Assembly: GCA_002069815.1 (NCBI GenBank)
Contig: MWCB01000002.1
Coordinates: forward strand, 4,716 to 68,715
DNA length: 64,000 bases
From: Tenericutes bacterium ADurb.Bin239
GTDB lineage: Bacteria > Bacillota_I > Bacilli_A > RFN20 > CAG-826
Direction of reading: 5' to 3'
Below are positions 1 to 60,658 of the stretch, piece after piece. Position 1 is the stretch's first letter. The number at the start of each line of letters is the position of its first letter. The position numbers were made by a program, and so were the translations under genes. The notes under the pieces were generated by a model. It was not told the DNA's origin, did no database searches, and saw only the letters and a program-made list of their open reading frames with translations.

Positions 1-461
1 ATTATATGATTTCTAATAATTATGATTTTTCTAGTACAGATTATGGAATAATTAATGAAGCTGGCGAAAAATTGGGTAAATATATTACTGCTCCTAAAAA
101 AATAACACATAAAAAATTTCGTAAGATTAGTTGGGTAGGTTGTTTAACAGTAATGTATAAAAGAAGCATTTTTCCAGACCTTTCTATTCCTGATAGCATT
201 AAAAAAAGGAATGATTATGCCTTATGGTTAAAATTATCAGAAAAAGCGAATTGTTACCATATGAAAGAAATTACTGCCTGTTATCGAAAGAGAGGTGGTT
301 CAATTTCCTCTGGAAGCAAAATAAAGTTATTTAAGTATCATATTGCATTATTTGAAAAACTGTATGGATACAATAATTTTAGAGCATTTTTAATGGCATC
401 AAGGAATACGATTTATTATTTTTGGAAAGTTTTTGCATACACAAAGAAAGAAAAAGCGTAA
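1..461 (+). CDS. glycosyltransferase family 2, C-terminal part (5' end outside window)
   Basis: The ORF is open to the window edge. Its C-terminal region (KRNDYALWLKLSEKANCYHMKEITACYRKRGGSIS) looks GT2 TagX/EpsJ-like, and it sits in a polysaccharide locus. Confidence 0.5.
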   Translation, partial: YMISNNYDFSSTDYGIINEAGEKLGKYITAPKKITHKKFRKISWVGCLTVMYKRSIFPDLSIPDSIKKRNDYALWLKLSEKANCYHMKEITACYRKRGGSISSGSKIKLFKYHIALFEKLYGYNNFRAFLMASRNTIYYFWKVFAYTKKEKA

Positions 462-484
462 TAGAAAGAAGAGTTATTTGATTT

Positions 485-1399
485 ATGGCAAGTTTAACAA
501 GATGGAAAATTTGGTTTAAGATGATGATTGGCAAAAGTGAACTCCATGTTAATCAACCATTAGGTAAATTTATCTCAGTTGATGAAATAAAAGGTTATTA
601 TAACGATTTTACTAATAAAGTCTTATTTGATAAAAAAACTGAAAAAATCGTTGATTATATTCCTCTTTTCACCAATGATGATGGCAAAAAAGTGGTTTTT
701 CCTATCACAGTGATCCAATATGCTCTGGGTTGTTATGAATTATTTTTAGAAACCAATGATGATGTTTATCTTAAAAAAATGATTCATTGTTCCGAATATG
801 TCTTATCTTTAATAAACGCGGATGGTTCTATTTCTTGTATGTATTTTTTCAAAGATATTTCTAACCCATATTCAGCTATGTGTCAGGGTGAATGTGTTTC
901 GTTGCTTGCCAGAGCTTATTTAGAAACGAATGATAAAAGATTTTTTGACGGTGCGCTAAAAGCCTTTAATTTCTTAATTAATGAAGATCATAATCAAGCT
1001 GTTGTCAAAACATTTAGAAATTTAAAATATTGTCTTTATGAATTTCCCGACAAAACGATAGTCTTAAACGGCTATATTTATGCTCTTTTCGGAGTTTATG
1101 ATGCATATTTACTTTTTAAAAATCCTGAAATTAAAAAAATCTTTGATATTTCATCTGCTTCTTTACTCAGTATTATAGATGATTTTGATTATAACAAATG
1201 GTCCTTCTATGATCTTGCTGGAAATGTTTCTAGTAAATTTTATCATAAATTACACGTAGTATTATTACCAGCTTTAAATCTAATTTGTAATAATAAATTT
1301 AAATATTGGGAAACTCGATGGTATGAAGGCTTAAAAGACAAGCGATTATCAAGAAAAATGTTTTGGAAAAAAGTAAAACAAAAATTAATAAGAAAGTAA
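485..1399 (+). CDS. hypothetical protein of polysaccharide locus (possibly alpha/alpha-barrel, C5-epimerase-like; unverified)
   Basis: A 304-aa ORF lying between the GT2 and GT4 genes on the same strand. I recognise no diagnostic motif. Confidence 0.35.
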   Translation: MASLTRWKIWFKMMIGKSELHVNQPLGKFISVDEIKGYYNDFTNKVLFDKKTEKIVDYIPLFTNDDGKKVVFPITVIQYALGCYELFLETNDDVYLKKMIHCSEYVLSLINADGSISCMYFFKDISNPYSAMCQGECVSLLARAYLETNDKRFFDGALKAFNFLINEDHNQAVVKTFRNLKYCLYEFPDKTIVLNGYIYALFGVYDAYLLFKNPEIKKIFDISSASLLSIIDDFDYNKWSFYDLAGNVSSKFYHKLHVVLLPALNLICNNKFKYWETRWYEGLKDKRLSRKMFWKKVKQKLIRK

Positions 1400-1680
1400 A
1401 ACAAATTCAAATACTTTATTTAATAAGACAATTTTATTAACTATCCTGTCAGCAATTTAACAGAATGTTTTGTAAATAATTACAAATGTTATTATAATGT
1501 GTTGAGAAAAAACAATGAAAGCACTGTATAGAGGAAAGTATATTGTTATTAAATGGATGTGTTCTTTTTTAATTTGTTTAGTATAAATAAATCCTTGAAT
1601 TATAAAACAGTGTTATTTTTCTGACCATAACTGTAGTCGATGTTTCGAGAAAACATAGACATAAAGGAGAGATTATTATA

Positions 1681-2772
1681 ATGAATATATGTTTTTGTAG
1701 TAGTGCAATGATAGCTGGTGGCGCAGAAAAAGTAATCGCCTCATTAGCAAACTATTTTGTAAAATTAGGGCATAAAGTAACTATTTTAATGGTTGCTGGC
1801 ACAAAAAAAGAATCATTTTATACACTTTCAGAAGATATAAATTTAATAGCACTATGCGAGGGAAAAAAGAAGGCATCTAGACCAATAAAACGAGTCATAC
1901 TTTTAAGGAAAGCCCTAAAATCATTAAATCCCGACATTGCAATTTCTTTCCTGTATCACGCTAGTATTTATAGTTATTTTGCTTTATTAGGAACAAGAAT
2001 TCCTCTTTTAGTGTCGGAACGAAATAATCCAAAAAAAGTTCCAAGTAATTTTCTTATAAGATTATTGAGAAATTATGTATTTAAAAATGCTAGTGGTATT
2101 GTTTTTCAGTTGGATGAAGCCAAACAATATTTTAATGGAAAATATCGGAGAGGTGAAGTTATTAGTAATCCTGTTATTTTAAATTACCACCCAGTAGATT
2201 CTTTAATTAGTAGAAAAAAGAAAATTATTTACGTTGGAAGTGACAAAAAAGAAAAAAACAGAAAACTCCTATATGATGTTTTTTCAATTTTTTACAAAAA
2301 CAATCCCGATTATATACTTGAAGTATATGGTATTGATAGTTTTGACGCAGACAAGGAACATTTGAAAAAAAATGGTATTGTTGATTCAGTAAAATATTGT
2401 GGTTTTGTGGAAAATTGGCATGCACTAGCATTTGATGCAACAGCATTTATATTAACATCTGATTTTGAAGGAATGCCCAACGCGCTTTTGGAAGCACATA
2501 CACTCGGAATACCCTGCATATCGACAGATTGTCCTCCTGGCGGGCCGCGTGAAATATTAGAAAATGGTGATGGCGGAATTTTGGTGGGAGTTGGTGATGC
2601 AAAAAAAATGGCTATGGAACTTGAACGACTTGCTGCTGACATAAAATTACAAAGAAAATTTTCAAAAAAAGGTATGGATAATCGGACCAAATATAACGTT
2701 GAGGCAATTGGAGACAAATGGCTAGCACTTATTGAAGAAATAATAAAAAATAAAATTTCTACTAAAGGATAA
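1681..2772 (+). CDS. glycosyltransferase family 4 (GT-B, retaining)
   Basis: The C-terminal motif EGMPNALLEAHTLGIPCISTDCPPGGPREIL is the GT4 E-x7-E signature. An AGGAGA RBS lies just before the ATG at 1681. Confidence 0.8.
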   Translation: MNICFCSSAMIAGGAEKVIASLANYFVKLGHKVTILMVAGTKKESFYTLSEDINLIALCEGKKKASRPIKRVILLRKALKSLNPDIAISFLYHASIYSYFALLGTRIPLLVSERNNPKKVPSNFLIRLLRNYVFKNASGIVFQLDEAKQYFNGKYRRGEVISNPVILNYHPVDSLISRKKKIIYVGSDKKEKNRKLLYDVFSIFYKNNPDYILEVYGIDSFDADKEHLKKNGIVDSVKYCGFVENWHALAFDATAFILTSDFEGMPNALLEAHTLGIPCISTDCPPGGPREILENGDGGILVGVGDAKKMAMELERLAADIKLQRKFSKKGMDNRTKYNVEAIGDKWLALIEEIIKNKISTKG

Positions 2773-2792
2773 AATTAACTATTATATATTGA

Positions 2793-3755
2793 TTAATGAT
2801 TTAAATTGATAGTCATCTTTGAACCAATTAATTCATCAAAGTTTTTCGGGTGTTTAAATCTAAGATATCCTCCCCAGTGAAAAAAAGTGGTTTCTCCAAA
2901 ATATATATTGTTGTTTATGGTATATAAATCAACACGTAAGAAAGGAAAACCATTTGCAATTTTTTTACTAATTTCGATCATTTTTGAGATATTATGTGGC
3001 AATTCAGGAATATTTTCTGCTGGTGGTTCAACCTCCCAAATGTCTAGCGGTTCTAATTTTTCATTAAAAAAATTGATTCTTTCACTTTCAGCTTTATTTG
3101 AATTCACGTGGAAAACAATCAATTCTCCATAATTCATTAGAAATTTATAGTCACGTAAATCTGTTGTATCTAGATATTCTTCCACTAATATTCTGGGTTT
3201 GATTTCTTTGTAATTCCATTCTAATAATTGATAATAGTAATTTATTTTAAGCAATTCATTCAGTATTTTTTGCATTGTTTTAAATCTTATTTTTTTGTGC
3301 GTTCGATCTTTTAAATTTTCAATTTCGTATTTTTTATTAGATTTTTTGTGGATAAAAAAAATATAGCCCGAATTATGATTACATTTTATTATTGATTTAT
3401 TAGGGAGATTTTGTAATGAAATTTGTTTGGCGTTATCAAAAACAGCATATGTTTTCGGGAAGTTTATCTCATCCCCCAATAATTTTTTAATATAATCTTT
3501 GACCAGCACTTTATCAGACATTATTGTTGATTCAGATTTATGAAAATACAATTTTTGCCATAGTAAAATTTCTGAAAATCTAGTCGGATTATTCAAATTT
3601 GGTTTTCTTTTGTAATAGTCTTCATATTCTTTTACTAATAGTTTTGAAATATTAGAAGATTCTATTTTTTTTCGCCTTTTTTTATTAATTCTAACAAGCT
3701 TTTTAACAATAAATAAATGTGTCAAATCAAATTTTTTAAGTATTTTTTTAAACAT
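2793..3755 (-). CDS. TupA-like ATP-grasp family protein
   Basis: Contains KCNHNSGYIFFIHKK and FPFLRVDLYTINNNIYFGETTFFHWGG. These resemble the RVDLY...GKIYFGE.TF core of TupA-like ATP-grasp proteins found in teichuronic and capsule loci. Confidence 0.5.
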   Translation of the reverse strand: MFKKILKKFDLTHLFIVKKLVRINKKRRKKIESSNISKLLVKEYEDYYKRKPNLNNPTRFSEILLWQKLYFHKSESTIMSDKVLVKDYIKKLLGDEINFPKTYAVFDNAKQISLQNLPNKSIIKCNHNSGYIFFIHKKSNKKYEIENLKDRTHKKIRFKTMQKILNELLKINYYYQLLEWNYKEIKPRILVEEYLDTTDLRDYKFLMNYGELIVFHVNSNKAESERINFFNEKLEPLDIWEVEPPAENIPELPHNISKMIEISKKIANGFPFLRVDLYTINNNIYFGETTFFHWGGYLRFKHPKNFDELIGSKMTINLNH

Positions 3756-4067
3756 ATATTGTCTCCTGTTTTATTTTTGCATAAAATACCAAACAATGAG
3801 AATTAGTTTTGTTAGCGAACACAATAACATAAATAAAAGTCAGGCGCTCATCGTAACAAAGCAAACATATAGAACATTTAAAAAGTAATTATGAAGTTTG
3901 CAAATATAGTATACACCATAACGAAAATAAGGAGACTTCATAACTTTTTTTGGTGCTTCAAACACATTTTTGAACGATTTTTGCCTATTGAATACAACAA
4001 AATAGGCGATATTTTGTAAATGATTAATATTTTTATTATAATGGTTAGCGTGGAATAACTTGAAAGT

Positions 4068-5288
4068 ATGAGAATAACGTTTAAAAAAATTAATGTTGGG
4101 TTGTTTGGTACATACATTATGGTTATGTACTTGTTTGATTTAAATATTAATACACTGTGGATATCAAAAGTCGTTTTTTTAATGTTTGCAATCTCAACCT
4201 TGATTTCGTTGTTTATAGCAAAAAAAGTAACTCTCAATTTATTTTTTTGGTTATTTGGTTTATTTGTATTTTATTCAGCAATAAGTATTTTCTGGGCCGT
4301 TGAATCTAATTTAGCGTTGAAGATGACATTAACATTATTTCAGTTATTAATTCTTGGGTTTTGTGTTACCCAAACATTTGATAAAGAAAATATAGAAATT
4401 ATACCCCATTTCTTCGCTCTGGCGGGAGCGTTGCTTTTTTTATATTCGTTATATATCTATGGAATTAAAGATTTTTTTGTCAGTATAATCAACTCAAAAC
4501 GGCTAGGCGCACAAATTAGCCAAGAAAATATTTATGGTTTTCAATCGGCAATTTCAATTGTTGCAGCACTATATTTAATGTTTTTTAAAAAGAAATACAT
4601 TTATGTGTTGGTTTGCCTTGCTTTATTGTTCGTAATCGCCGCTAGCGGATCAAAGTCTGCCTTGTTGATTGTACCAATTGGTTTCATAATTGTTATATTG
4701 TTAAAATATGGCGTTAATAGGAAAGTAATATTATTTTTTATTCTTTTAATTGTTTTCAGTATCGCATTACTTAATACGCCAATTTTTAAAGGTGTAATTC
4801 ACAGAATACAAAAAATGTTAGAAGTTTTGTTGTACGGCAATACAGCCCAAGACGGTTCAACAACAAAAAGGTTAGAATTTATTATAGAAGGAATCGTTTT
4901 ATTTTTTAAAAAACCGCTTTTCGGTTATGGAGCTGATAACTTCAGAGTTATCATCGCTCCCATTTTAGGAGTTTCAACATATTCCCACAATAATTACATT
5001 GAATTACTTGTCAATGGTGGAATAATTGGTTTTCTATTATTTTATTTTTCATATTTTGTATTGATATTGGAAGCATTTTCTAAAAAATTAGATAAGTTTT
5101 TACTTATAATAATGATATTATTTTTGATTGCTGACATGGCAACTGTTTCGTTATATTCAAAAATATTCGTAATTTTTCTATCTTTAGGATTTTCCTCTCT
5201 TGAAGGAGCAAATAACGAAACAGTCGAAGTTAAAAAATATTCAACAAAATATAAAAAAAGCATGATTTCTACGCCAATACTAGGGTAG
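4068..5288 (+). CDS. wzy: O-antigen polymerase/ligase family membrane protein (Wzy-like)
   Basis: Roughly 10-12 predicted TM helices with a large periplasmic loop. The NYIELLVNGGIIGF region is Wzy_C-like. The gene sits next to a Wzx gene. Confidence 0.6.
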   Translation: MRITFKKINVGLFGTYIMVMYLFDLNINTLWISKVVFLMFAISTLISLFIAKKVTLNLFFWLFGLFVFYSAISIFWAVESNLALKMTLTLFQLLILGFCVTQTFDKENIEIIPHFFALAGALLFLYSLYIYGIKDFFVSIINSKRLGAQISQENIYGFQSAISIVAALYLMFFKKKYIYVLVCLALLFVIAASGSKSALLIVPIGFIIVILLKYGVNRKVILFFILLIVFSIALLNTPIFKGVIHRIQKMLEVLLYGNTAQDGSTTKRLEFIIEGIVLFFKKPLFGYGADNFRVIIAPILGVSTYSHNNYIELLVNGGIIGFLLFYFSYFVLILEAFSKKLDKFLLIIMILFLIADMATVSLYSKIFVIFLSLGFSSLEGANNETVEVKKYSTKYKKSMISTPILG

Positions 5289-5552
5289 TAGGAACTAAAG
5301 AAGTAATTGAATATTTTATTAACAGATAACGGTACCGCTTGATAAAATCATATATTAAAAAAGACAAGAAGAAAGAATAGAAAAATATATAGAATCATAA
5401 AGTGTTTTTAAAGTTCTCCCACTTTCAATAAATGAGCATTTAATAATAACGAAAAACATAAAGTTTATTGAATAGGTATTTTACCTTGTTGCTTTACCAC
5501 ATTCATGCGTAGTGATACAATTATGTTCGAATAATTAAAAGGTGATTTATAA

Positions 5553-6419
5553 ATGGCTAAAAATGACATTCTAAAATTAAACAAACAACAAAGTGATATT
5601 AAAAAGAAACTCAAAAAATTACAGAGTATTCAACTAGAAATATTGCAATATTTTGATACTGTTGCGAAGGAAAATGATATTACATATTATTTAGCTTTTG
5701 GCACGCTGCTCGGTGCAATTCGACACAAAGGCTTCATTCCTTGGGATACAGATATCGATGTTACACTGACTCGAGACGAATATGAAAAAATAATTAAAAT
5801 TTTGCGTGATAGGGAAGAAAATGAAAGTTTCTTCGTGAGATCTTCTGGTGAAAAAAATCATTTTTGTACTCACGCACTATTATATTGTAAAAACACTGAA
5901 CTTATAAACAACAATAACAAAAGAAAAAAAATACGGAGAGAAGTTTATATTGATTTATTTCCGCTTGATAGAATTCCCGATGATGATAAATTATGGAAAA
6001 AACATTTGCAAAGAGTTACCAAAATTGCAAAAGCTACAGATATAAAGAAACCAGTGTATCACAAGAAGGGAAGATTATATAAATTTCTTAAATATGCACG
6101 TTCATATTTGTACTTTTATATATCTATTGAAAAACTCTTTAAAAAATTTGATAAAGAGGTACAGCGATATAATGATCAAAAATCCAAGCGTTATGCGCAA
6201 TTAACGAGTCCATATAGACATGTGCCCCTAAATACTGAATATTTCGGCGAACCAAAATATGTTCAATTTGAAAATATTATGGCCCCCATACCACAAAACA
6301 CCAAATTAATTTTAGAAGCAAATTATGGCGATTTCATGAAACTTCCATCACTTGAAGAACAGGAAGAACAATTATCGAAATATTTCGAGGTATATGATTA
6401 TAGGGACACAAATGAATAA
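5553..6419 (+). CDS. licD: LicD-family phosphotransferase (phosphocholine/phosphonate transferase to glycan)
   Basis: YYLAFGTLLGAIRHKGFIPWDTDIDVTL matches the LicD/fukutin nucleotidyltransferase-fold motif, including its DxD. An AAAGGTGA RBS precedes the start. Confidence 0.7.
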   Translation: MAKNDILKLNKQQSDIKKKLKKLQSIQLEILQYFDTVAKENDITYYLAFGTLLGAIRHKGFIPWDTDIDVTLTRDEYEKIIKILRDREENESFFVRSSGEKNHFCTHALLYCKNTELINNNNKRKKIRREVYIDLFPLDRIPDDDKLWKKHLQRVTKIAKATDIKKPVYHKKGRLYKFLKYARSYLYFYISIEKLFKKFDKEVQRYNDQKSKRYAQLTSPYRHVPLNTEYFGEPKYVQFENIMAPIPQNTKLILEANYGDFMKLPSLEEQEEQLSKYFEVYDYRDTNE

Positions 6420-7938
6420 ACACTCCAAAAAGAAAGCCGTTATTATTTCATACATTGCTACTATTCTTAATTATGCAGCAATGTTTTTCGTTGTTCCTAT
6501 AACGATTAGAATGTTAGGAAAGCAAGAATTTGGCTTGTATAGTTTAGTTAATTCTGTTGTTGGCTACCTAGCTCTTCTGAGTTTGGGTCTTGGCAGTGCT
6601 TATATTCGCTTTTATTTTCGCGCAAAAACTGACAAGCACTCATATAAAGTTGAAAATCTAAACGGGATGTATTTTTTATCATATGTAATTATTGCTTTTG
6701 CGGTAATTATTTTGGGTGTTATTTTTATTATATTTTCCGAAAATATTTTTGGTCCTAAATTAACAATAGAAGAGCATCAAACCGCCAAGGTTCTATTAGC
6801 AATTTTAATATTTAATTTAGCAACCACGTTTCTCTTTTCTATTTTTTGGTCATATACACGAGCAATAGAACATTTTGTGACTTTGGAAATAGCAAATTTG
6901 CTTAAAGTTGTTTTAGGACCCGCAGTTACTATTCCCTTGCTTCTTTTGGGATTTGGCAGTGTAGGATTTGTTGCTGGTACAACCGCAATCACTACATTAA
7001 TTGAAATCTCTGTGATGATATATGCTATTAAAAAAGGGCGAATTACTTTCAAATTTAATTATTTCGACAAAGTTTTATTAAAAGAAATTGTCGTTTACTC
7101 ATTGTTTATTTTTGGTTTTCAATTATTAGATCAAATTAATAATGGTGTTGATAATTTAATACTCGGATGGACGGGAGGAACCGAAGTTGTTTCTATATAT
7201 GCAGTGGGAGCAACAATTGCATATGTTATTTTATCCTTACCAAATGGAATAAAAGGGGTTATAGTTCCAGAAATCAATAAAATTTCTTCTAACGATGAAA
7301 ATAAATTAGAAAAAATTAGTTTATTGCAAACTCGTTATGGAAGAATAATATTTATGATTTTAGCGTTAGTACTTTTAGGTTTTGTACTTTTAGGTTTACC
7401 ATTTCTTGATTTATGGGCTGGTGTTGGATTTAGTGATTCATATCTAATCGTAATTTTGTTGGTTTTAGCTAGGTTAATTAATTACTCATTGGTAGTTAGT
7501 TCCGAATTTATTAGAGCGGAGAATAGACACAAAACTAGACTTACCATCTATGCCATAACGATATTACTCAATGTAATAGTTTCTATTCCGCTGGCAATTT
7601 GGCTGGGACCAGTTGGTGCTGCTATAGGTACTGCTTTCACATACACTATTTATACAATATTTCTATATTTTTACTATATTCGTAAAATAGGGTTGAATTT
7701 AAACATCTTGTTGAAGCAACTTATAAAAATGGCAGTAATTTATGTTCTTGTATTTACACCATTTTATGTTGCAACCTTCTTTGTGCAAATGAAAAACATA
7801 ATGATTTTTTTAGCAATTGGTGGAGGATTTACTTCAATATTTTTAATAGTAAATTATTTATTTGTTATGAATGAATATGAACGCGGAATAATCAAAACTC
7901 TACTTAGAATAAAAAGGAAAACACACTCACAATCTTAA
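6412..7938 (+). CDS. wzx: polysaccharide flippase Wzx (MOP superfamily)
   Basis: About 12 TM segments with a Wzx-like N-terminus, MNKHSKKKAVIISYIATILNYAAMFFVVPI. I chose the ATG at 6412, which has an AGGGA RBS, over the track start at 6352. This start overlaps the licD stop. Confidence 0.7.
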   Translation: MNKHSKKKAVIISYIATILNYAAMFFVVPITIRMLGKQEFGLYSLVNSVVGYLALLSLGLGSAYIRFYFRAKTDKHSYKVENLNGMYFLSYVIIAFAVIILGVIFIIFSENIFGPKLTIEEHQTAKVLLAILIFNLATTFLFSIFWSYTRAIEHFVTLEIANLLKVVLGPAVTIPLLLLGFGSVGFVAGTTAITTLIEISVMIYAIKKGRITFKFNYFDKVLLKEIVVYSLFIFGFQLLDQINNGVDNLILGWTGGTEVVSIYAVGATIAYVILSLPNGIKGVIVPEINKISSNDENKLEKISLLQTRYGRIIFMILALVLLGFVLLGLPFLDLWAGVGFSDSYLIVILLVLARLINYSLVVSSEFIRAENRHKTRLTIYAITILLNVIVSIPLAIWLGPVGAAIGTAFTYTIYTIFLYFYYIRKIGLNLNILLKQLIKMAVIYVLVFTPFYVATFFVQMKNIMIFLAIGGGFTSIFLIVNYLFVMNEYERGIIKTLLRIKRKTHSQS

Positions 7939-8033
7939 TTTAGAAAAAAGAGTTGTTTTAAAAAGATTATATTTATTTAACATCAGAAAATAGCAATATG
8001 TAGAAAATTCCAGCAGATAAAAATTAACAGAAG

Positions 8034-9152
8034 TTATTTTCTCCATGTTTTAATATTAATGATCTGAGCGTAACTTTGAATAATTTTAACTACTTTAGTG
8101 GAAACATTTAAAGTTTGATAATCTTTATTAAATGTTATTTTTTCATTTTTTAAAGCTAACGCTAAATTAATTGATTGTATAATATTTTTTGTAGTAATTC
8201 CGCCGATAATGATACTTCCGAAATCTAGCGCTTCAGGTCTTTCAGTTGAAGTTCTAATGAGAATTCCAGGAAAATTAAGCATTGCGCTTTCCTCACTTAA
8301 AGTTCCAGAATCACTTAGCACACAAAACGATTCTTTTTGTAATTTATTATAGTCAAAAAAGCCTAATGGTTTCATTTGTTTTACAAGAGGATGGAATATG
8401 AAGTTTCGTTTTTCAATCCATTTTTTGCTACGCGGGTGCACCGAATAAATAACTGGTAGTTGATATTTTTCTGCGATGTCATTAATTGCAGTCATTAAGT
8501 TGTAGAAGTTATGTTCTAGGTCAATATTCTCTTCACGATGACATGAAACAAGGATATATTTACCTCTTTCTAATTTAAGTTCCGATAGTATTTTACTTTT
8601 TTCGATGTTTTCCGCATACATATGAATGACTTCAGCCATTGGAGAACCAGTTACGAAAATAGTTTTTGGATCAATACCTTCTTCAATAAGATAAAGGCGA
8701 CTATTTTCTGTGTAAGGCAAGTTAATATCAGCTATACTGTCTACAATTCGTCGATTAATCATTTCGCTAACATTCCAGTCCCAGCAACGATTGCCAGCTT
8801 CCATATGGAAAATAGGTACCTTTAATCTTTTTGCGGAGATAGCAGCTAAGGCACTGTTAGTATCGCCAAGAATTAAAACCGCATCAGGCTTTTCTTTAGC
8901 AATAACCTTGAATGACTTGGCAATAATATTACCCATTGTTTCCCCCAAATCTATATCTGCAACTTCTAGAAAATAATCTGGTTTTCTTATGCCTAAGTCA
9001 TTAAAAAAAATTTCATTTAGTTCATAATCATAGTTTTGGCCAGTATTAACCAAAATATGATTGAATACTTCGTCAGCCTTCTTAATAACAGCTGATAAAC
9101 GAATGATTTCAGGTCTTGTTCCTAAAATAGTCATTAATTTTAATTTTGACAT
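8034..9152 (-). CDS. fnlC: UDP-N-acetylglucosamine 2-epimerase (FnlC/CapG/WbjD type)
   Basis: The N-terminus MTILGTRPEIIRLSAVI is typical of non-hydrolysing UDP-GlcNAc 2-epimerases. It is the third gene of a CapE/CapF/CapG-like trio. Confidence 0.75.
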   Translation of the reverse strand: MSKLKLMTILGTRPEIIRLSAVIKKADEVFNHILVNTGQNYDYELNEIFFNDLGIRKPDYFLEVADIDLGETMGNIIAKSFKVIAKEKPDAVLILGDTNSALAAISAKRLKVPIFHMEAGNRCWDWNVSEMINRRIVDSIADINLPYTENSRLYLIEEGIDPKTIFVTGSPMAEVIHMYAENIEKSKILSELKLERGKYILVSCHREENIDLEHNFYNLMTAINDIAEKYQLPVIYSVHPRSKKWIEKRNFIFHPLVKQMKPLGFFDYNKLQKESFCVLSDSGTLSEESAMLNFPGILIRTSTERPEALDFGSIIIGGITTKNIIQSINLALALKNEKITFNKDYQTLNVSTKVVKIIQSYAQIINIKTWRK

Positions 9153-9155
9153 AAT

Positions 9156-10265
9156 CTATACCTCCTCATAAATTGTATCGGGATTATTTTTATCAAAAGG
9201 CTCATTACTCCATATAATCACAACCATATCAATTTCACCGATATTTTCAATGTTATGGGTATAGCCAGGCGGAATATCTAAAACTTGAAGTTTATCGCTA
9301 TTTACTTGATATTCAATCGTCTCATCAGTGTGCACCTTACGAAAACGAATAATTCCTTTTCCACATACAACCAGAAACTTTTCAATTTTGCTATGATGCC
9401 AATGGTTACCTTTTGTAACGCCAGGTTTAATAACGTTAATTGAAAGCTGGCCACAATCATTTGTCCTAAGAAATTCAGTAAAAGATCCGCGATTATCTAT
9501 TGTCATTTTTAAATCATATATAAGTTTTTCTTTTGGTAAATAACTTACATAATTAGAATATAATTTTTTTTGGAAGTCATCATCTAATTTAGGAATACTT
9601 AAGTTTTGTCTGCTATGTTTAAAGGAGTAGAGAAGATCTACAATATAACCAAGTTTTACTCTGTAAACAGGTGTGATTTGCCTAAACTTTTGGGATTTCG
9701 AGTCATTTTTATCCAATAAACCAATCAATGCATTAACAACGTCATCAATATAAACAAGCTGAATATCTTGGTTTGAATCATTAATAACAATTGGTAAATC
9801 ACGCGCGATGTTATACGAAAAAGTAGCAACAGCGCTATTGTAGTTAGGTTTTGCCCATTTGCCAAAAACATTATCAAGACGGAAAATGTATATTTTGTTT
9901 CCTGTTTCTTTTTCATAATCAAACATTAAATCTTCAGCAGCTTTTTTACTGATGCCATAAGGATTATTAATCGCAACTTTTGTGGAAGAAGAAATCATTA
10001 TTGGTGATTTGTTATTATGTTTTTTAAGGTTATTTAAAAGTACAGACGTAAAAACATAATTACCTTCCATAAATTCTTTTTCATCCTTTGGTCTATTAAC
10101 TCCCGCGAGATGAAAAACAAAGTCACACTCTTTGGTGAATTTATCTAAGTCTTCTAAAGAGGAATCTATGTCATACGAAAAAATAGTGTAGTTATTATTT
10201 TCTTTTAATCGTTCAATTAAATTCTGAGCAATAAAACCCTTGGAGCCAGTAACCAGTATTTTCAT
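9156..10265 (-). CDS. fnlB: UDP-2-acetamido-2,6-dideoxy-L-talose reductase/epimerase (FnlB/CapF type: SDR + C-terminal cupin)
   Basis: An N-terminal Rossmann motif MKILVTGSKGFIAQNL is followed by a C-terminal cupin-like half (HWHHSKIEKFLVVCGKG). It lies between the FnlA-like and FnlC-like genes. Confidence 0.7.
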   Translation of the reverse strand: MKILVTGSKGFIAQNLIERLKENNNYTIFSYDIDSSLEDLDKFTKECDFVFHLAGVNRPKDEKEFMEGNYVFTSVLLNNLKKHNNKSPIMISSSTKVAINNPYGISKKAAEDLMFDYEKETGNKIYIFRLDNVFGKWAKPNYNSAVATFSYNIARDLPIVINDSNQDIQLVYIDDVVNALIGLLDKNDSKSQKFRQITPVYRVKLGYIVDLLYSFKHSRQNLSIPKLDDDFQKKLYSNYVSYLPKEKLIYDLKMTIDNRGSFTEFLRTNDCGQLSINVIKPGVTKGNHWHHSKIEKFLVVCGKGIIRFRKVHTDETIEYQVNSDKLQVLDIPPGYTHNIENIGEIDMVVIIWSNEPFDKNNPDTIYEEV

Positions 10266-11260
10266 TATTTAAATATATCCAACTTCATTAATAATATTTT
10301 CATTTCTTTTACATTTAATCTTGTAGTATTGTGTGAATGATACGCATCCTTTATAAAATTTTGTTCAACGCCCTTTTCAATATATTTTTCATAGTTCAAA
10401 TTACGATTATCCGAAGGTATTTTATAAAAGTTTGGCAATTCAATAGCTTTCGCCATTTCCTCTTGTGTCACTAATACCTCGTAAAGTTTTTCACCATGCC
10501 TTGTTCCAATTAAAACGGGATTTTGCTTAACACTCTTTAATTCAAGTATTGCTCTTGCTAGAGTATCAATTGTGGCAGCGGGGGCTTTGTGCACGAATAA
10601 ATCTCCTTGTTTACCATGTTTAAAAGCATACAAAACAAGATCTACCGCATCATCAATTGTCATCATAAATCGTGTCATATTAGGATTAGTGATAGTAATA
10701 GGTTTTCCTGCTTTAATTTGATCGAGAAACAACGGTATTACAGAACCACGCGTTGCCATAACGTTACCATATCTTGTAAGGCATAAAATAGTATCAGTAG
10801 AACGAAGTTGTCTAGATCTAGCCACAACATTTTTTTCCATGAGAGCCTTACTCATTCCCATAGCATTAATTGGGTAGGCTGCTTTGTCAGTTGATAAGAA
10901 TATTGCCTTTTTAACACCATTTTTTACAGACGCAGTGATAACATTATCGCTTCCTAAGATGTTTGTTTTGACAGCTTCAAGCGGATAAAATTCACATGAG
11001 GGAACTTGTTTTAGTGCGGCAGCGTGAAAAACATAATCAACACCAATGAAAGCTCCTTCAATGGAGTTATAGTCACGAACATCACCAAGATAAAATTTTA
11101 GTTTGTTGTTATTGAATTTTTTTCTCATATCTTCCTGTTTTTTCTCATCGCGCGAAAGAATCCTAATTTCTTTAATGTCTGAGAGTAAGAAACGTTCAAC
11201 AACAGCATTTCCAAAAGAACCTGTTCCACCAGTTATTAAGAGTGTTTTATCTTTAAACAT
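10265..11260 (-). CDS. fnlA: UDP-GlcNAc 4,6-dehydratase/5-epimerase (FnlA/CapE type)
   Basis: LLITGGTGSFGNAV is the CapD/CapE-type extended-SDR motif and the protein is about 330 aa. Its start overlaps the fnlB stop. Confidence 0.8.
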   Translation of the reverse strand: MFKDKTLLITGGTGSFGNAVVERFLLSDIKEIRILSRDEKKQEDMRKKFNNNKLKFYLGDVRDYNSIEGAFIGVDYVFHAAALKQVPSCEFYPLEAVKTNILGSDNVITASVKNGVKKAIFLSTDKAAYPINAMGMSKALMEKNVVARSRQLRSTDTILCLTRYGNVMATRGSVIPLFLDQIKAGKPITITNPNMTRFMMTIDDAVDLVLYAFKHGKQGDLFVHKAPAATIDTLARAILELKSVKQNPVLIGTRHGEKLYEVLVTQEEMAKAIELPNFYKIPSDNRNLNYEKYIEKGVEQNFIKDAYHSHNTTRLNVKEMKILLMKLDIFK

Positions 11261-11479
11261 ATTATTTTTCCTTCCTTATTTTTCTAATGTAATGTTTATT
11301 TTACAAACAGAAATTATTTAAAACATATCAATATCATTTTAATTATACCTAAAACTGTGTAAATCTTCGTTAAATAATTAAAAATAAAAGATATTTAACT
11401 TTAATGGTTTAGAAACTGTTAAAAATTAACTATAATATTGATAGCGCATTATTTGTAACATTATGTAAGCGAGGTAATT

Positions 11480-12787
11480 ATGAATAAAAAAGTATATGTA
11501 GCAATTGGAGCAGACATTCTCCATCCAGGTCATATCAACATTATTAACGAAGGTGCAAAATACGGAAAAGTAATAATTGGTTTACTATCTGATGAGGCTA
11601 TAGCTTCTTACAAAAGACTACCAATTTATCCTTACGATTCTAGAAAAGCAGTTTTTGGCAGTCTTAAAAATGTTTATGAAATAGTAAGGCAAGACACCCT
11701 TGACTATACCGAAAATCTAAGAAAAATAAAACCTGATTATGTTGTACATGGTGATGATTGGCGCGAAGGTGTTCAACAATTAGTCAGAGAAAAAGTAATT
11801 GAAGTATTAAAAGAATGGGGCGGGGAACTTATTGAAGTTCCCTACACTCATGGTATTAGTGCCACTAGCGCTCATGCCCAAATCACTAGAGATTTGAGAG
11901 CACCAGATTATCGTCGCGGAACATTAAAACGAATGCTCCATTTAAAACCCTTTGTGTCAGTTATGGAAGCTTCTAATGGTCTATCTGGTCTTATTGTTGA
12001 AAATACAAGTGTTATTGATAAAGAAACGGGATTACCACGTTCTTTTGATGCAATGTGGATTTCTTCGCTTTGTGACTCAACCTTTAAAGGAAAACCAGAT
12101 ATTGAACTTGTGGACCTAACAAGTAGATTAGTCACTATCAACGAAATCATGGAAGTGACCACTAAACCGATTATTCTAGATGGCGACACAGGCGGTAAAG
12201 AGGAACACTTTGTGTTTAATGTTAGAACATTAGAAAGATTAGGAGTTTCCGCAATTATTATTGAAGACAAAACTGGTCTTAAAAAGAATTCACTATTTGG
12301 AACTGAAGTCGAACAAACTTTAGAAGATCCAGAGGTGTTTGCCCATAAGATTAGAGCCGGAAAACAAGCTTTAACCACTCGTGATTTTTTAATTTTTGCG
12401 CGTATTGAAAGTTTAATTGCCGGAAAAGACGTCGCGGATGCGATGATGCGCGCGAAAATTTACGTTGAAGCGGGAGCGGACGGAATTATGATTCACTCTA
12501 AAGATAAATCCGGAGAAGACATTTTTGAATTTATGCGACAATTCCGCAAATATAGTAAAGATATTCCAATTATTCTTGTCCCAACTTCTTACAATCAATT
12601 TACAGAAAAAGAATTAGCGGAAAAAGGAGCGAATATTATCATCCACGCTAATCATTTACTAAGAGCAGCCTACCCCGCAATGGTAAAGGCAGCCGAAACC
12701 ATCCTTGAAAATGGTCGCAGTAAAGAAGCGGATGAATTCTGTTTACCAATTAAAAAAGTATTAACACTTATTCCAGGTGGTAAATAA
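11480..12787 (+). CDS. pepM: bifunctional cytidylyltransferase (HxGH, TagD/Fom1-type) / phosphoenolpyruvate mutase PepM
   Basis: An N-terminal domain of about 110 aa carries [14 protein letters not shown], the HxGH cytidylyltransferase motif. The remainder is PepM-like ([13 protein letters not shown]...[10 protein letters not shown]). Confidence 0.85.
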
Positions 12788-13907
12788 AATGATTGATACA
12801 AAAGCGTTCTATGATTATTTATCAAGTAAAGACATTGACACATTTTTTGGAGTACCCGATTCTTTGCTTAAAGATATTTGTGCATATATCACACAAAATG
12901 CACCAAGTGAAAAACATATTATTACCGCTAATGAAGGTAATGCTGTTGCCCTTGCTTGTGGGAATTATTTAGCAACAGGAAAAATAGCAATGGTTTACTT
13001 ACAAAATAGTGGCTTAGGTAATATTGTTAATCCGCTTATTTCTCTAGCAGACGAAGATGTTTACAATATTCCAGTATTATTTATGGTGGGGTGGAGAGGT
13101 GAACCAGGAACACATGATGAGCCCCAACATAAAAAACAAGGAAAAATTACACTGAGTACTCTTGAAACACTCGGAGTAAAAACATTTATACTTGAAGAAA
13201 ATTATAAGCCAATTGTTGATGAAGCAGTTAAGTATATGAAAAAAACACTTAAACCAGCGGCCATCGTTGTTCGAAAAGGAACATTTAGTAAAGTTAAATT
13301 AGAACTCCCACTAGACTCTTTTTCAATGTCACGGGAAGAGGCCTTAAAAGCAATGATGAAACACATTGATGATAAAAGTGTCATAGTGAGTACAACTGGA
13401 AAAACAAGTCGCGAAGTATTTGAAATAAGAGTTAAAAATAATGATTCACACGAAAGAGACTTCTTGACTGTTGGATCAATGGGCCACACCGCATCAATTG
13501 CGCTTGGTATTGCTTTAGCCAGCAAAAAGCGTGTATTTTGCATTGATGGTGATGGTTCTATGCTCATGCATTTAGGTGGGTTAGGGGTTGCAGCAGTTAA
13601 CGCTCCTAAAAACTTTAGATATATTGTTATTAATAATGGAGCGCATGAATCAGTGGGTGGGCAACCCACAGTAGCGTTCTCGCTAAACTTTAAAAAGATT
13701 TTGGAAGGTCTAGGCTTTAGTAAAGTTTATGAAGTTAAGACATTAGAAGACATTGAGAAAGATTTTCCAAAGTTTAAGCGTAAAAATAAAGCAGCTTTAG
13801 TAGTGTATGTTAATCAAGGAAGCCGTGATGATTTAGGGCGTCCAACAACGACTCCAGCCCAAAATAAAGAGTCATTAATGAAGTTTTTAAGGAGAAGCCG
13901 TAAATAA
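12777..13907 (+). CDS. ppd: phosphonopyruvate decarboxylase (ThDP-dependent)
   Basis: [11 protein letters not shown] is the ThDP-binding motif and the 376 aa length fits Ppd. The gene overlaps pepM by 11 nt, indicating translational coupling. Confidence 0.8.
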
Positions 13908-13908
13908 A

Positions 13909-15714
13909 ATGAAAGCATTCATATTTAATAGTGGTATAGGATCCCGCTTAGGCGACTTAACAAAAGACAAACCCAAAGCGCTGGTTGAATTAAAAAACGG
14001 AGAAACTATTTTAGGACGACAACTTCGTATCCTGCGAAGTGTAGGAATTAAGCATATTGTCATTTCGACAGGGTATAAAGCAGAAATGATTAAAGATTAT
14101 TGTAGAAAAGAGTTTCCAGAATTAGATTTTACTTTTGTGCATAATCCAAAGTTTGACACTACCAATAGTATTTACACAATGTTCTTAGCGGAAAATACAT
14201 TTCAAGATCATTTTCTTATAATGCATGGCGATCTAGTATTTGATGAAAAAATAGTTGAAAAACTTTTAGTAGAAAAACATCGTGATTTAGCATGCATCAA
14301 TACTAATATTCCAAAACCTCTTAAAGATTTTAAAGGAAGAGTTAGGAATGGTAAACTCCATCGGATTTCGGTTGATATTTTTGGGGAAAATGATTATGCT
14401 TTGCAACCGTTATATAAGTTGAGTTTTGCCGCGATTAGCCAATGGATGCTTCAAATCAAGGATTTAGTTCGCGCAAATGTTGTTAATGTTTATGCCGAAA
14501 ATGCTTTTAATAATGCATTACCACTTCTAGATGTACGCGTCGTTGATTATAAAGATAATTTTATTGAAGAAATTGATACATTAGATGATTATGATAGAGT
14601 AAGCGATGCTGTAAGATTATTTGATTACGCAAATCAAAAAGTTTATAACGGAGATTACTTAGTTAGATTGGATGAAGTATTTAAAAAACATGATTTTAAG
14701 AGACCATTTATTGTATATAACGCTGCTGCTTATAAAAGCCCAGAGTATCCTAAGTTTATTAAAAGATATGAAACAATAATGTTTGATGATTATTCTCCTA
14801 ATCCAAAGTATGAAGAAATAATGCCTGGAATTAAACTGTTTAAAGAAAATAAATGCGATGTTATTGTTGCTATTGGTGGTGGTTCAACGTTAGACGTAGC
14901 AAAAGCAATAAAGTTATTTTCTAAACTAAATCCAAACATTGATTTTTTAAAACAAACACCAGTGTATGTTAATACTCCGCTTATTGCTATTCCCACAACA
15001 GCAGGAACTGGTAGCGAAACAACGCGATACGCTGTAATCTACGCAAGTGGTGAAAAACAATCGTTAACACATGATTGTATTTTTCCAGATATCACGATAA
15101 TTGATCCTACTTTTCTTCGCGGCTTGCCTGAATATCACCGGAGATCATCATTGCTTGACGCACTTTGTCAAGCAATTGAAAGTTATTGGTCAAAAGGCGC
15201 AACCAAACAGACCCGTGAATTTAGTGCGAGAGCGATTCACTTATTTAGGTATACTTATAAACACTATTTAGAAGGTCATCCGTTTGTGGACGATAGAATT
15301 ATGAAAATTGCCTACTTAGCAGGTCAGGCAATTAACATTACCGCTACAACAGCACCACATGCAATGAGTTATAAACTGACCTCCTTAACTGGTATTGCCC
15401 ATGGTCACGCTGTTAGTGTTACACTTCCTTACACCTATAAATATATGTTTGACAATATGGAAGTGGAAAAAGATAAAAATTTGGCTCAAACATTTGCCAA
15501 TCTTGCGAAAATTTTTGAAACTGATGAAACAAAACTATTTGAATTATTAAGAACTATCTTTGATGAATTTGAATTGGAAAAACCAAAGGTTACCGAAAAA
15601 CAACTTATGGAATTGATTAATGATGTGAATACAGAAAGGTTGCAGAATAATCCCGTTTTTCTCGATAAAGAAGCAATTTCAGAAATATATAGGAGCTCAC
15701 TCACAGTAGTGTAA
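13909..15714 (+). CDS. fusion: LicC-like nucleotidyltransferase (N) + iron-containing alcohol dehydrogenase (C), putative phosphonoacetaldehyde reductase/phosphonate cytidylyltransferase
   Basis: The N-terminus MKAFIFNSGIGSRLGDLTKDKPKALVEL has the NTP_transferase G-x-G-x-R...K pattern seen in LicC. The C-terminal 340 aa carry GGGSTLDVAKAI and conserved His residues typical of Fe-ADHs. The start lies 2 nt after the ppd stop. Confidence 0.75.
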   Translation: MKAFIFNSGIGSRLGDLTKDKPKALVELKNGETILGRQLRILRSVGIKHIVISTGYKAEMIKDYCRKEFPELDFTFVHNPKFDTTNSIYTMFLAENTFQDHFLIMHGDLVFDEKIVEKLLVEKHRDLACINTNIPKPLKDFKGRVRNGKLHRISVDIFGENDYALQPLYKLSFAAISQWMLQIKDLVRANVVNVYAENAFNNALPLLDVRVVDYKDNFIEEIDTLDDYDRVSDAVRLFDYANQKVYNGDYLVRLDEVFKKHDFKRPFIVYNAAAYKSPEYPKFIKRYETIMFDDYSPNPKYEEIMPGIKLFKENKCDVIVAIGGGSTLDVAKAIKLFSKLNPNIDFLKQTPVYVNTPLIAIPTTAGTGSETTRYAVIYASGEKQSLTHDCIFPDITIIDPTFLRGLPEYHRRSSLLDALCQAIESYWSKGATKQTREFSARAIHLFRYTYKHYLEGHPFVDDRIMKIAYLAGQAINITATTAPHAMSYKLTSLTGIAHGHAVSVTLPYTYKYMFDNMEVEKDKNLAQTFANLAKIFETDETKLFELLRTIFDEFELEKPKVTEKQLMELINDVNTERLQNNPVFLDKEAISEIYRSSLTVV

Positions 15715-15773: not shown

Positions 15774-16562
15774 ATGTATAGACCTATTAAAAGAACAATG
15801 GACTTTGTATTATCGCTACTAGCAATCATAATGCTGAGCCCTATTTTTGTTGTTATTTCCATTTTAGTAAGAATAAATCTTGGAGCCCCTGTTCTTTTTA
15901 AACAAAAGCGAGCGGGAAGATATAATAAAATATTTACCTTATACAAATTTAGATCAATGCGAACTGTATATGACGAAAACGGAGAATTGTTGCCTGATGA
16001 ACAAAGATTAACGAAGCTAGGTCTTTTTTTACGCAAAACAAGTCTTGATGAATTGCCCCAACTATTTAATATTTTGTTTGGTCATATGACAATAATAGGG
16101 CCACGCCCAAGAGTTATTTTTGAGACAATGTTAATGAAAGACACAAAATATGTGTACAGGATGGCCATTAAACCAGGATTGAGTAGTTGGTCGGTGATTC
16201 ATGGAAGAAACAATATGAGAATTGATCAAGCTTTGGCTTATGATTTTGAGCATGTGGTTAAATTTTCATTTTGGTTAGATTTAAAAATATTTTTTAAGAC
16301 GATAGGGATTGTTTTGAAAAGGACAGGTATTAACACCGATGGTTATGTGACCACTAAGCCTATCAGTGAATTTTTGATTGAAAATAATTTAAAGACACCT
16401 GCTGAAATTACAGAAATAAAAAAAGAGTCATTTGATGTTGAGGCATCAAATTTAAAATATATACCGATGAATATATCTAAAGAAGAATTTAAAGCAAAAC
16501 GTCGTGAAATCCAAAAAAATCGCAAATCATATACTCCTAGCAAAATTGTAACTTGGGATTAA
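15774..16562 (+). CDS. initiating phosphoglycosyltransferase (small Bac_transf / PglC-WbaP C-domain type sugar transferase)
   Basis: MDFVLSLLAIIMLSPIFVVISILVRINLGAPVLFKQKRAGRYNKIFTLYKFRSMR is the hallmark N-terminal hairpin plus the K-F-R-(S/T)-M motif of bacterial sugar transferases. Confidence 0.8.
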   Translation: MYRPIKRTMDFVLSLLAIIMLSPIFVVISILVRINLGAPVLFKQKRAGRYNKIFTLYKFRSMRTVYDENGELLPDEQRLTKLGLFLRKTSLDELPQLFNILFGHMTIIGPRPRVIFETMLMKDTKYVYRMAIKPGLSSWSVIHGRNNMRIDQALAYDFEHVVKFSFWLDLKIFFKTIGIVLKRTGINTDGYVTTKPISEFLIENNLKTPAEITEIKKESFDVEASNLKYIPMNISKEEFKAKRREIQKNRKSYTPSKIVTWD

Positions 16563-25893: not shown

Positions 25894-25897
25894 ATTA

Positions 25898-60582: not shown

Positions 60583-60658
60583 GGGGCCGTAGCTCATCTG
60601 GGAGAGCGCATCGTTCGCAACGATGAGGTAGCGAGTTCGATCCTCGTCGGCTCCACCA
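60583..60658 (+). tRNA. tRNA-Ala (anticodon CGC)
   Basis: A cloverleaf folded by hand: acceptor stem GGGGCCG/CGGCTCC with the G3:U70 Ala identity pair, D arm GCTC/GAGC, anticodon stem CATCG/CGATG with loop TTCGCAA, T arm GCGAG-TTCGATC-CTCGT and an encoded CCA. Confidence 0.8.

Follow-up and report, generated by a model that had tools for sequence, protein, structure and literature searches.

Why should a three-gene phosphonate cassette carry two nucleotidyltransferase domains of different folds? The question was raised by a 64,000-nucleotide stretch of contig MWCB01000002.1 from Tenericutes bacterium ADurb.Bin239 (positions 4,716 to 68,715), which is referred to here as the window. Three adjoining genes on its plus strand encode a cytidylyltransferase domain fused to phosphoenolpyruvate (PEP) mutase (CyT-PepM, 11480-12787, CTP_transf_like and PEP mutase), a phosphonopyruvate decarboxylase (Ppd, 12777..13907) and a LicC/PntC-type nucleotidyltransferase followed by an iron-containing alcohol dehydrogenase (Fe-ADH) on the same chain. 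The last of these, the NT3-ADH fusion, is an open reading frame (ORF) of 601 amino acids with an ATG start (13909-15714). The original prediction, made from the letters of the sequence, had described this three-gene layout, a TagD/Fom1-type domain on the mutase and a LicC/PntC-like domain on the dehydrogenase, and all of it was confirmed. The two nucleotidyltransferase domains of different folds within the cassette are a real feature. We propose, with a probability of about 0.5, that both would serve as overlapping and partly redundant routes to one donor, cytidine monophosphate-2-hydroxyethylphosphonate (CMP-HEP), and would not be activators of two head groups.

The NT3 domain (amino acids 1-238; 13909..14622, plus strand) was recognized in Pfam by NTP_transf_3 (1.7e-11) and NTP_transferase (5.5e-10) on amino acids 1-128. 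The NT3 family profile agreed and spanned the whole domain, the best matches within the PF12804/PF00483 fold family being LicC (1jyk, 1.6e-22, profile 2-234) and the PntC domain of Tde1415 (6pd1, 3.8e-22, profile 2-235). The signature GXG(T/S)RX4-8PK is present as G9-I-G11-S-R13...P22-K23, and residues G9, G11, R13, K23, D108, E221 and D223 were invariant in 17 diverse NT3 members, down to 35% identity. R13, K23 and D108 align to R15, K25 and D106 of Tde-PntC, and E221 and D223 to E216 and D218 of LicC; D108 was equated with LicC D107 by transitivity via the paper on Tde-PntC (PMC6697681), the HMMER alignment to LicC being off by one residue there. The head-group pocket has its own composition. 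An invariant His106 takes the position of Tde-PntC Glu104 and LicC Asp105, ligands of the amine or ammonium head group, while the second acidic ligand is kept (Glu197, corresponding to Tde-PntC Glu196 and LicC Asp192) and the choline aromatic box is not, with Ala196 in place of LicC Trp191. Because one of the two acids expected of a 2-aminoethylphosphonate (AEP)-specific PntC or a phosphocholine-specific LicC is missing, NT3 may well work like PntC but should not be placed in the AEP-specific PntC group or in LicC proper. With one negative charge fewer, the pocket would suit an uncharged hydroxyl head group.

The domain on the mutase, CyT (amino acids 1-140; 11480..11899, plus strand; PF01467, 1.3e-11), is 60% identical to the CyTase domain of Fom1 (5x3d) over 131 amino acids (7e-52), with HPGH identical. 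It retains H15-P-G-H18 of the HxGH class, Y44-K-R46 and H90-GDDW94. Its signature, Y122-THGISAT-129, the equivalent of RTEGISTT, departs from the Fom1 sequence YTPGISST at one variable position and by one Ser-to-Ala replacement, at position 128, where all the NT3-less relatives with a visible ADH have Ser (47/47, 100%). The window domain matches 48 of the 52 positions that are at least 90% conserved, and its close relatives from the same clade, L081, L088 and L166, carry canonical signatures. The window CyT thus appears nearly canonical, and it cannot be asserted to be inactive. The original prediction had named a loss of catalytic residues from one of the two domains, to be looked for by alignment, as the finding that would speak against it; both window domains keep their core residues, bar the Ser-to-Ala change in the CyT signature.

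The distribution of NT3 was followed in 80 metagenomic loci with the closest CyT-PepM relatives (56-91% identity), typed by window probes and an NT3 hidden Markov model, where NT3-less status was judged within the DNA covered for each locus. Fe-ADH was visible in 57 loci, and 47 of these had no NT3. A stand-alone NT3, upstream of the mutase or downstream of Ppd or of the ADH, was found in seven, and an NT3-Fe-ADH fusion in three, two of them further fused to LicD; NT3-CyT-PepM occurred in one sampled locus without visible ADH. Complete cassettes lacked NT3 in 24/27 cases with at least 1.5 kilobases (kb) on both flanks and in 14/15 cases with at least 3 kb. The common form is therefore [CyT-PepM][Ppd][Fe-ADH], as in fosfomycin biosynthesis, and NT3 is an add-on in a minority. 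Since the NT3-less cassettes are in the majority, one Fom1-type domain suffices in most lineages. An obligate partnership, in which CyT and NT3 would always occur together, had been suggested by a Rosetta-stone argument from the first contexts and was rejected, as most sampled cassettes have CyT only.

The fusion of NT3 to Fe-ADH is not rare as such but forms a large family, common in sequence databases. Each of the 120 best-matching clusters at the 90% level (42-99% identity) shows the NT3 plus Fe-ADH architecture, and the NT3 domain was matched by at least 167 clusters at 50% identity (E <=1e-30). Among the best 150 of these representatives, 86 were stand-alone, about 55 were NT3-Fe-ADH, five were NT3-Fe-ADH-LicD or NT3-Fe-ADH-LicD-LicD, a few were NT3-CyT(-PepM) and one was NT3-CyT-Fe-ADH; no fusion of NT3 to an aminotransferase was found in this set. 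The partners of NT3 are thus mainly Fe-ADH, CyT/PepM or LicD, with odd fusions in P0133 and P0238. In all 11 readable contexts of NT3-Fe-ADH, CyT-PepM and Ppd lie directly upstream, with LicD, TagF-like or Wzy/Wzx genes nearby. Single ORFs of 810 to 1508 amino acids that join NT3 and Fe-ADH to one LicD domain or two were found at L089:2492-4921 and L090:9553-14079 and as P0132, P0149, P0150, P0157, P0216 and P0076. Such proteins would hold three consecutive decoration steps, reduction, activation and transfer, on one chain. A scan of genome contigs with the full-length alignment was keyed on a generic Fe-ADH peptide pattern and returned mostly unrelated alcohol dehydrogenases, the informative hits being L001 (a fusion) and the triple-fusion loci described below. 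Two unusual proteins were recorded in the course of this sorting: P0241 (751 amino acids) has NT3, CTP_transf_like and Fe-ADH on one chain, its CTP_transf_like match ending at profile position 102/133, and P0238 (899 amino acids) has NT3 twice in a row, then a P-loop kinase-like domain and after it a histidine phosphatase domain.

The duplication of nucleotidyltransferases, which the original prediction had taken as an oddity, is thus real but less singular than it had seemed. Rice et al. 2019 (PMC6697681) report a fusion to PF12804, to PF01467 or to both for about 60% of Ppm proteins; in A. rimae, O. uli and T. denticola, according to the same paper, the cluster encodes a second nucleotidyltransferase besides the one fused to Ppm, Tde1415 being among these second ones. 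Clusters of this kind are on record in two papers (PMC6697681, PMC8942020), neither of which explains the duplication. Our literature search, which had most subscription journals outside its scope, found no account of the purpose of the second nucleotidyltransferase or of the NT3-Fe-ADH fusion.

Presence of NT3 was associated with changes in CyT. The CyT signature is nearly fixed as YTxGISST in NT3-less cassettes; it was non-canonical in 20/27 NT3-bearing cassettes versus 8/66 NT3-less ones (Fisher p = 1e-8, kinship ignored), and six of these eight are truncated loci that may or may not carry NT3. The triple fusions NT3-CyT-PepM have an entirely different sequence at this place, such as YGNDDRYK or YSTDPKYA, with HxGH kept, and in several members of clade II the signature is damaged. 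A neighbour-joining tree of the PepM domain divided the NT3-bearing cassettes into two main clades and singletons, with several distinct changes of the CyT motif inside each NT3-bearing clade. The triple fusions L002, L003, L005, L008, L011, L013 and L142 share a locally conserved Y-x-x-D-x-[KR]-Y-[KR] in place of YTxGISST, a replacement which suggests that the motif came under a new constraint and did not simply decay.

The rate of change in CyT was compared with that of the other domains by within-group pairwise distances. The CyT/PepM ratio was 0.92 without NT3 and 1.48 and 1.34 in the two NT3-bearing clades; the corresponding values were 0.62 versus 0.85 and 1.04 for CyT/Ppd, and 0.49 versus 0.67 and 0.64 for CyT/Fe-ADH. 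Where NT3 was present, the rate of CyT relative to the other three domains was therefore raised approximately 1.4-1.6-fold. Ratios of PepM, Ppd and ADH to one another, taken as controls, were alike in all groups, so the acceleration is specific to CyT. Per-sequence CyT/PepM ratios separated the groups fully (U = 517 = 11 x 47; 470 = 10 x 47). The acceleration is moderate. An unusually slow PepM in the clade of the window was considered as a cause of the high CyT/PepM ratio and rejected, as normalisation to Ppd and to ADH gave the same direction.

What the analysis shows are the identities of the domains, their kept catalytic residues, the gene context, the spread of architectures and the relaxation of CyT. 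From these observations the following scheme is proposed, in which activities, the substrate of each nucleotidyltransferase and the share of flux through each are read from sequence and gene context. The operon would be a cassette that makes CMP-HEP for decoration of a capsular polysaccharide or exopolysaccharide. PEP mutase would convert PEP to phosphonopyruvate, Ppd would decarboxylate this to phosphonoacetaldehyde, and the Fe-ADH domain would reduce phosphonoacetaldehyde to 2-hydroxyethylphosphonate (HEP). Next, the LicC/PntC-type domain of the ADH fusion would form CMP-HEP and pyrophosphate from HEP and cytidine triphosphate (CTP), and the single LicD of the locus would move the phosphonyl group onto a sugar hydroxyl. 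The Fom1-type domain would be the ancestral and usual HEP cytidylyltransferase of the cassette, most likely catalysing the same reaction as NT3; the LicC-type domain would be a later add-on in a minority of lineages, after which the Fom1-type domain would be under relaxed constraint. NT3 is probably the main route, taking over much of the flux to CMP-HEP. Both types have characterised precedents: the Fom1 CyTase converts HEP and CTP to CMP-HEP, and for Tde1415, in which a LicC-type domain shares its chain with the enzyme that completes the AEP pathway, CTP:AEP cytidylyltransferase activity yielding CMP-AEP has been measured (PMC6697681). Channelling of newly reduced HEP straight into activation by the NT3-ADH fusion, as the original prediction had it, is plausible, and the NT3-Fe-ADH-LicD fusions support it.

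Overlap of the two domains is favoured by several lines of evidence. If they acted on independent substrates, the gain of NT3 would not be expected to loosen the constraint on CyT, and loosening is what was seen. CyT alone suffices in most lineages, the window locus has a single LicD, and the NT3 clade is limited mainly to HEP-type partners (Fe-ADH, CyT/PepM, LicD), all of which argue for the overlap, as do the NT3-Fe-ADH-LicD polypeptides, which tie the product of NT3 to the donor of LicD, and the His in the NT3 pocket, which would fit an uncharged hydroxyl head group. Other observations weigh against it. CyT-PepM is retained in 11/11 NT3-Fe-ADH contexts, and CyT was never lost. In the clade of the window, mean p-distances were 0.24 for PepM, 0.36 for CyT, 0.42 for Ppd, 0.51 for NT3 and 0.54 for ADH, which makes CyT the second most conserved domain, and its HxGH, YKR and HGDDW motifs are invariant even where the signature is destroyed. 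The statistics given above ignore phylogeny, and the NT3-bearing cassettes fall mainly in two clades. The faster evolution of CyT could, moreover, reflect a changed function and not relaxation. Since full redundancy predicts loss, yet CyT was never lost, this domain probably keeps some role, perhaps in catalysis at a residual level or in the structure or regulation of the mutase. An extension of this thought, which we regard as rather unlikely and clearly less probable than overlap, is that the arrival of the LicC-type domain freed CyT for a second role, for which purifying selection keeps it in every NT3-bearing cassette, so that the two domains are not redundant. As candidates for such a role, CyT might gate PEP mutase by sensing CTP or CMP-HEP, or it might make a distinct nucleotide-phosphonate. 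If true, labour within one pathway would have been divided step by step between nucleotidyltransferases of two unrelated folds.

Different substrates for the two domains, as the original prediction suggested, would mean that one activates HEP and the other a second head group or an intermediate, such as phosphonoacetaldehyde, phosphonopyruvate, phosphocholine or glycerol phosphate, both being essential. The retention of catalytic residues in both window domains would fit this, as would the constant presence and good conservation of CyT beside NT3-Fe-ADH, the two or three LicD genes or the TagF-like transferase that adjoin the cassette in some relatives, and an NT3 pocket unlike both PntC and LicC. 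We nevertheless consider it unlikely, given that CyT stands alone in most related cassettes, that its relaxation and eroded signature in the presence of NT3 are not expected of domains with independent jobs, and that NT3 shares a chain with the HEP-forming ADH and, in some relatives, with LicD. In the window itself LicD is single, and the annotated ORFs of the locus include neither a choline kinase nor another gene for a head group. A related idea, that acceptor is shared and the nucleotide differs, with CMP-HEP and another nucleoside monophosphate-HEP made for different transferases, draws on the two different folds, on some relatives in which LicD and TagF-like transferases both accompany the cassette, and on a nucleotide specificity that is unreadable from sequence. 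It is very improbable: the Fom1 CyTase, LicC, Ari-PntC and Tde-PntC all prefer CTP, with minor use of ATP (PMC6697681), the window has a single LicD, and the relaxation of CyT points to overlap.

It may also be that CyT of the window's PepM fusion is non-catalytic, a structural, oligomerisation or nucleotide-sensing module, with all activation done by the LicC-type domain. The original prediction had allowed for one dead domain, and in some relatives, the triple fusions, this appears to be the case: the signature is destroyed there with HxGH kept, it is damaged in several clade II members, and the domain is never deleted. The Ser128-to-Ala change in the window, at a position that is always Ser in NT3-less relatives with a visible ADH, points the same way. 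For the window, however, loss of catalysis is doubtful, somewhat more so than different substrates, since YTHGISAT is separated from YTPGISST of the active Fom1 by the one variable position and the one Ser-to-Ala change only, 48/52 conserved positions are kept, and L081, L088 and L166 of the same clade have canonical motifs. Overlapping routes to CMP-HEP thus remain the preferred reading.

The reductase step was assigned to the Fe-ADH domain (amino acids 246-601; 14644..15714, plus strand), with Pfam matches to PF00465 (4e-39) and PF25137 (ADH_Fe_C, 2e-20) on amino acids 246-597. The GGGS motif (G323-GGS326) and residues D417, H484, H498 and H500 are invariant across the NT3-Fe-ADH family. The best NCBIfam model was Phn_Fe-ADH (TIGR03405) with 154 bits, under the cutoff of 423.7, and the score of the curated equivalog was thus not reached. 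The nearest solved relative, by sequence (2.3e-38) and by fold, is the sulfoacetaldehyde reductase 6jko, whose substrate is the sulfonate analogue of phosphonoacetaldehyde. The AlphaFold2 (AF2) model had a predicted local distance difference test (pLDDT) score of 91.6, and the top Foldseek matches were Fe-ADHs with a template modelling (TM) score of approximately 0.83; this search was run on the full-length fusion and was dominated by Fe-ADH matches that leave the N-terminal domain uninformed, the LicC-fold membership of NT3 resting on the profile search. The second metal-ligand position, usually His, is Gln421 (DALCQAIE, amino acids 417-424). A dead ADH on this account was rejected, because the active reductase 6jko has the same Gln (DVLSQAIE). 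The predicted role as phosphonoacetaldehyde reductase follows from the place of the gene right after Ppd and from the likeness to the reductase of the sulfonate analogue.

The other two enzymes of the cassette were assigned with scores above the curated cutoffs. The PEP mutase domain (amino acids 149-435; 11924..12787, plus strand) reached 378 bits with TIGR02320 (cutoff 319.55), and the motif EDKxxxxxNS is present as E262-DKTGLKKNS-271, invariant in the alignment of relatives; by motif and score, the partner of CyT is taken as a true PEP mutase. Ppd, on the same strand, reached 451 bits with TIGR03297 (cutoff 312.5). The three genes are closely packed, with an overlap of 11 nucleotides between pepM and Ppd and a gap of 1 nucleotide between Ppd and NT3-ADH, where an AGGAGA ribosome-binding site was found at the junction. 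No terminator-like site was found within the operon on the coding strand. A promoter-like site, TTTAGA-17-TATAAT with 10/12 matches, lies at 11408..11436 (plus strand) in the divergent intergenic region between an fnlA-like gene and the pepM fusion. This was not considered as more than weak evidence, as it is a consensus match and such sites number 35 in the region versus 25 expected.

The cassette sits in a Wzx/Wzy-type polysaccharide locus (window 1-20 kb; Pfam). The sole LicD-family phosphotransferase of the locus is encoded at 5553..6419 (plus strand; PF04991, 1.4e-43) and is predicted to move the phosphonyl group from the CMP conjugate onto the glycan; LicD genes in relatives adjoin the cassette or are fused to it. 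Directly downstream of the cassette is a bacterial sugar transferase, an initiating phosphoglycosyl transferase (15774..16562, plus strand; PF02397, 1.4e-55), and a gene of this type comes after the cassette also in L081 and L082. The rest of the locus, 1..11260, contains a C5-epimerase-like protein (PF06662), a GT4 glycosyltransferase (PF00534), a TupA-like ATP-grasp protein (PF14305), Wzy (PF04932) and Wzx (PF01943), together with a UDP-L-FucNAc-type trio on the minus strand (PF02350, PF14667 with PF01370, and PF02719). A gene of the TagF-like CDP-glycerol glycerophosphotransferase family (PF04464) adjoins the cassette in L081 (L081:4357-5580), which has no visible LicD, and on the contig of P0048. 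This hints that CMP-HEP may also feed transferases of the teichoic-acid type.

In its mode of working the system would resemble the Lic pathway and the Pnt pathway of Rice et al. 2019 (PMC6697681). The nearest characterised relatives are Tde1415 for the logic of the fusion, and Fom1/Fom2/FomC for the chemistry. Tde1415, the PntC-AEP transaminase of T. denticola (6PD1/6PD2; PMC6697681), likewise has an N-terminal cytidylyltransferase of the LicC type (GxGxR...PK) fused to the enzyme that forms the final free phosphonate, and its cluster also has a Ppm-fused nucleotidyltransferase (PMC6697681). The C-terminal part there is a class-V AEP transaminase and in the window an Fe-ADH for HEP, and Glu104, which binds the amine of AEP, is replaced by the invariant His in the NT3 family, a family known from sequence. 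The fosfomycin enzymes Fom1/Fom2/FomC (5X3D; Cho et al. 2017, cited in PMC6697681) share the three-step chemistry and the [CyT-PepM][Ppd][Fe-ADH] set with the window, and the GISxT part of the CyT signature is kept but for the one Ser-to-Ala replacement. In fosfomycin biosynthesis, however, the Fom1-type domain acts alone and CMP-HEP goes to a radical-SAM methyltransferase and not to LicD, whereas the window adds a LicC-type domain and lies in a polysaccharide locus. The triple-fusion Ppm proteins with PF12804, PF01467 and Ppm, 42 proteins or 2.8% of Ppm (Rice et al. 2019, PMC6697681), combine both nucleotidyltransferase families in one cassette as the window does, with NT3 of the same clade (E 1e-37 to 1e-50) and stand-alone Fe-ADH and Ppd alongside; they differ in that the mutase, and not the ADH, carries NT3 and that the CyT signature motif is lost. 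The LicC/LicD phosphocholine pathway (S. pneumoniae LicC, 1JYK) has the same order of cytidylyl activation by a LicC fold and transfer to a glycan by LicD, but the substrate in the window would be a phosphonate made de novo from PEP, and the pocket residues Trp191 and Asp105 are changed to Ala196 and His. Coupling of an alcohol-phosphate reductase to the activating cytidylyltransferase for a cell-wall polymer is a feature also of the CDP-ribitol synthase TarI/TarJ and, as a fusion, of Bcs1 of H. influenzae, although neither their reductase nor their cytidylyltransferase is of a family related to those of the window, and their substrate is a phosphate, not a phosphonate.

Several further features of the window were recorded. 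An ORF of 444 amino acids at 18735-20069 (plus strand) has no Pfam match at E <=1e-3; given its position, at the end of the polysaccharide locus, one would expect a chain-length regulator or tyrosine kinase. Another ORF, of 568 amino acids (21339-23045, plus strand), has a weak P-loop match only (GDSGAGKSE); its counterpart of 561 amino acids in L081, with no Pfam match, has the same position beside a class I/II aminotransferase. Two adjacent large ORFs on the minus strand (24409-28024; 494 and 708 amino acids) have N-termini like those of signal peptides or lipoproteins and a GC content of 0.39-0.42, higher than the 0.28-0.33 of the capsule locus. The sole Rfam match in the window is one tRNA gene at 60583-60655 (plus strand).

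Decoration of the cell surface with phosphonates is widespread, and published surveys have recorded paired nucleotidyltransferases in many such clusters without explanation. The duplication itself was thus already known; what is new is that the comparison of relatives favours overlap and partial displacement. The window is a well-preserved hydroxyethylphosphonate example of this two-nucleotidyltransferase puzzle, and the comparative pattern turns the puzzle into a testable hypothesis, that of functional overlap with displacement under way. The NT3 clade, with its His-for-Glu change in the pocket, is a good candidate for a HEP-specific cytidylyltransferase, which would be of use for production of CMP-HEP and for prediction of HEP-glycans from genomes.

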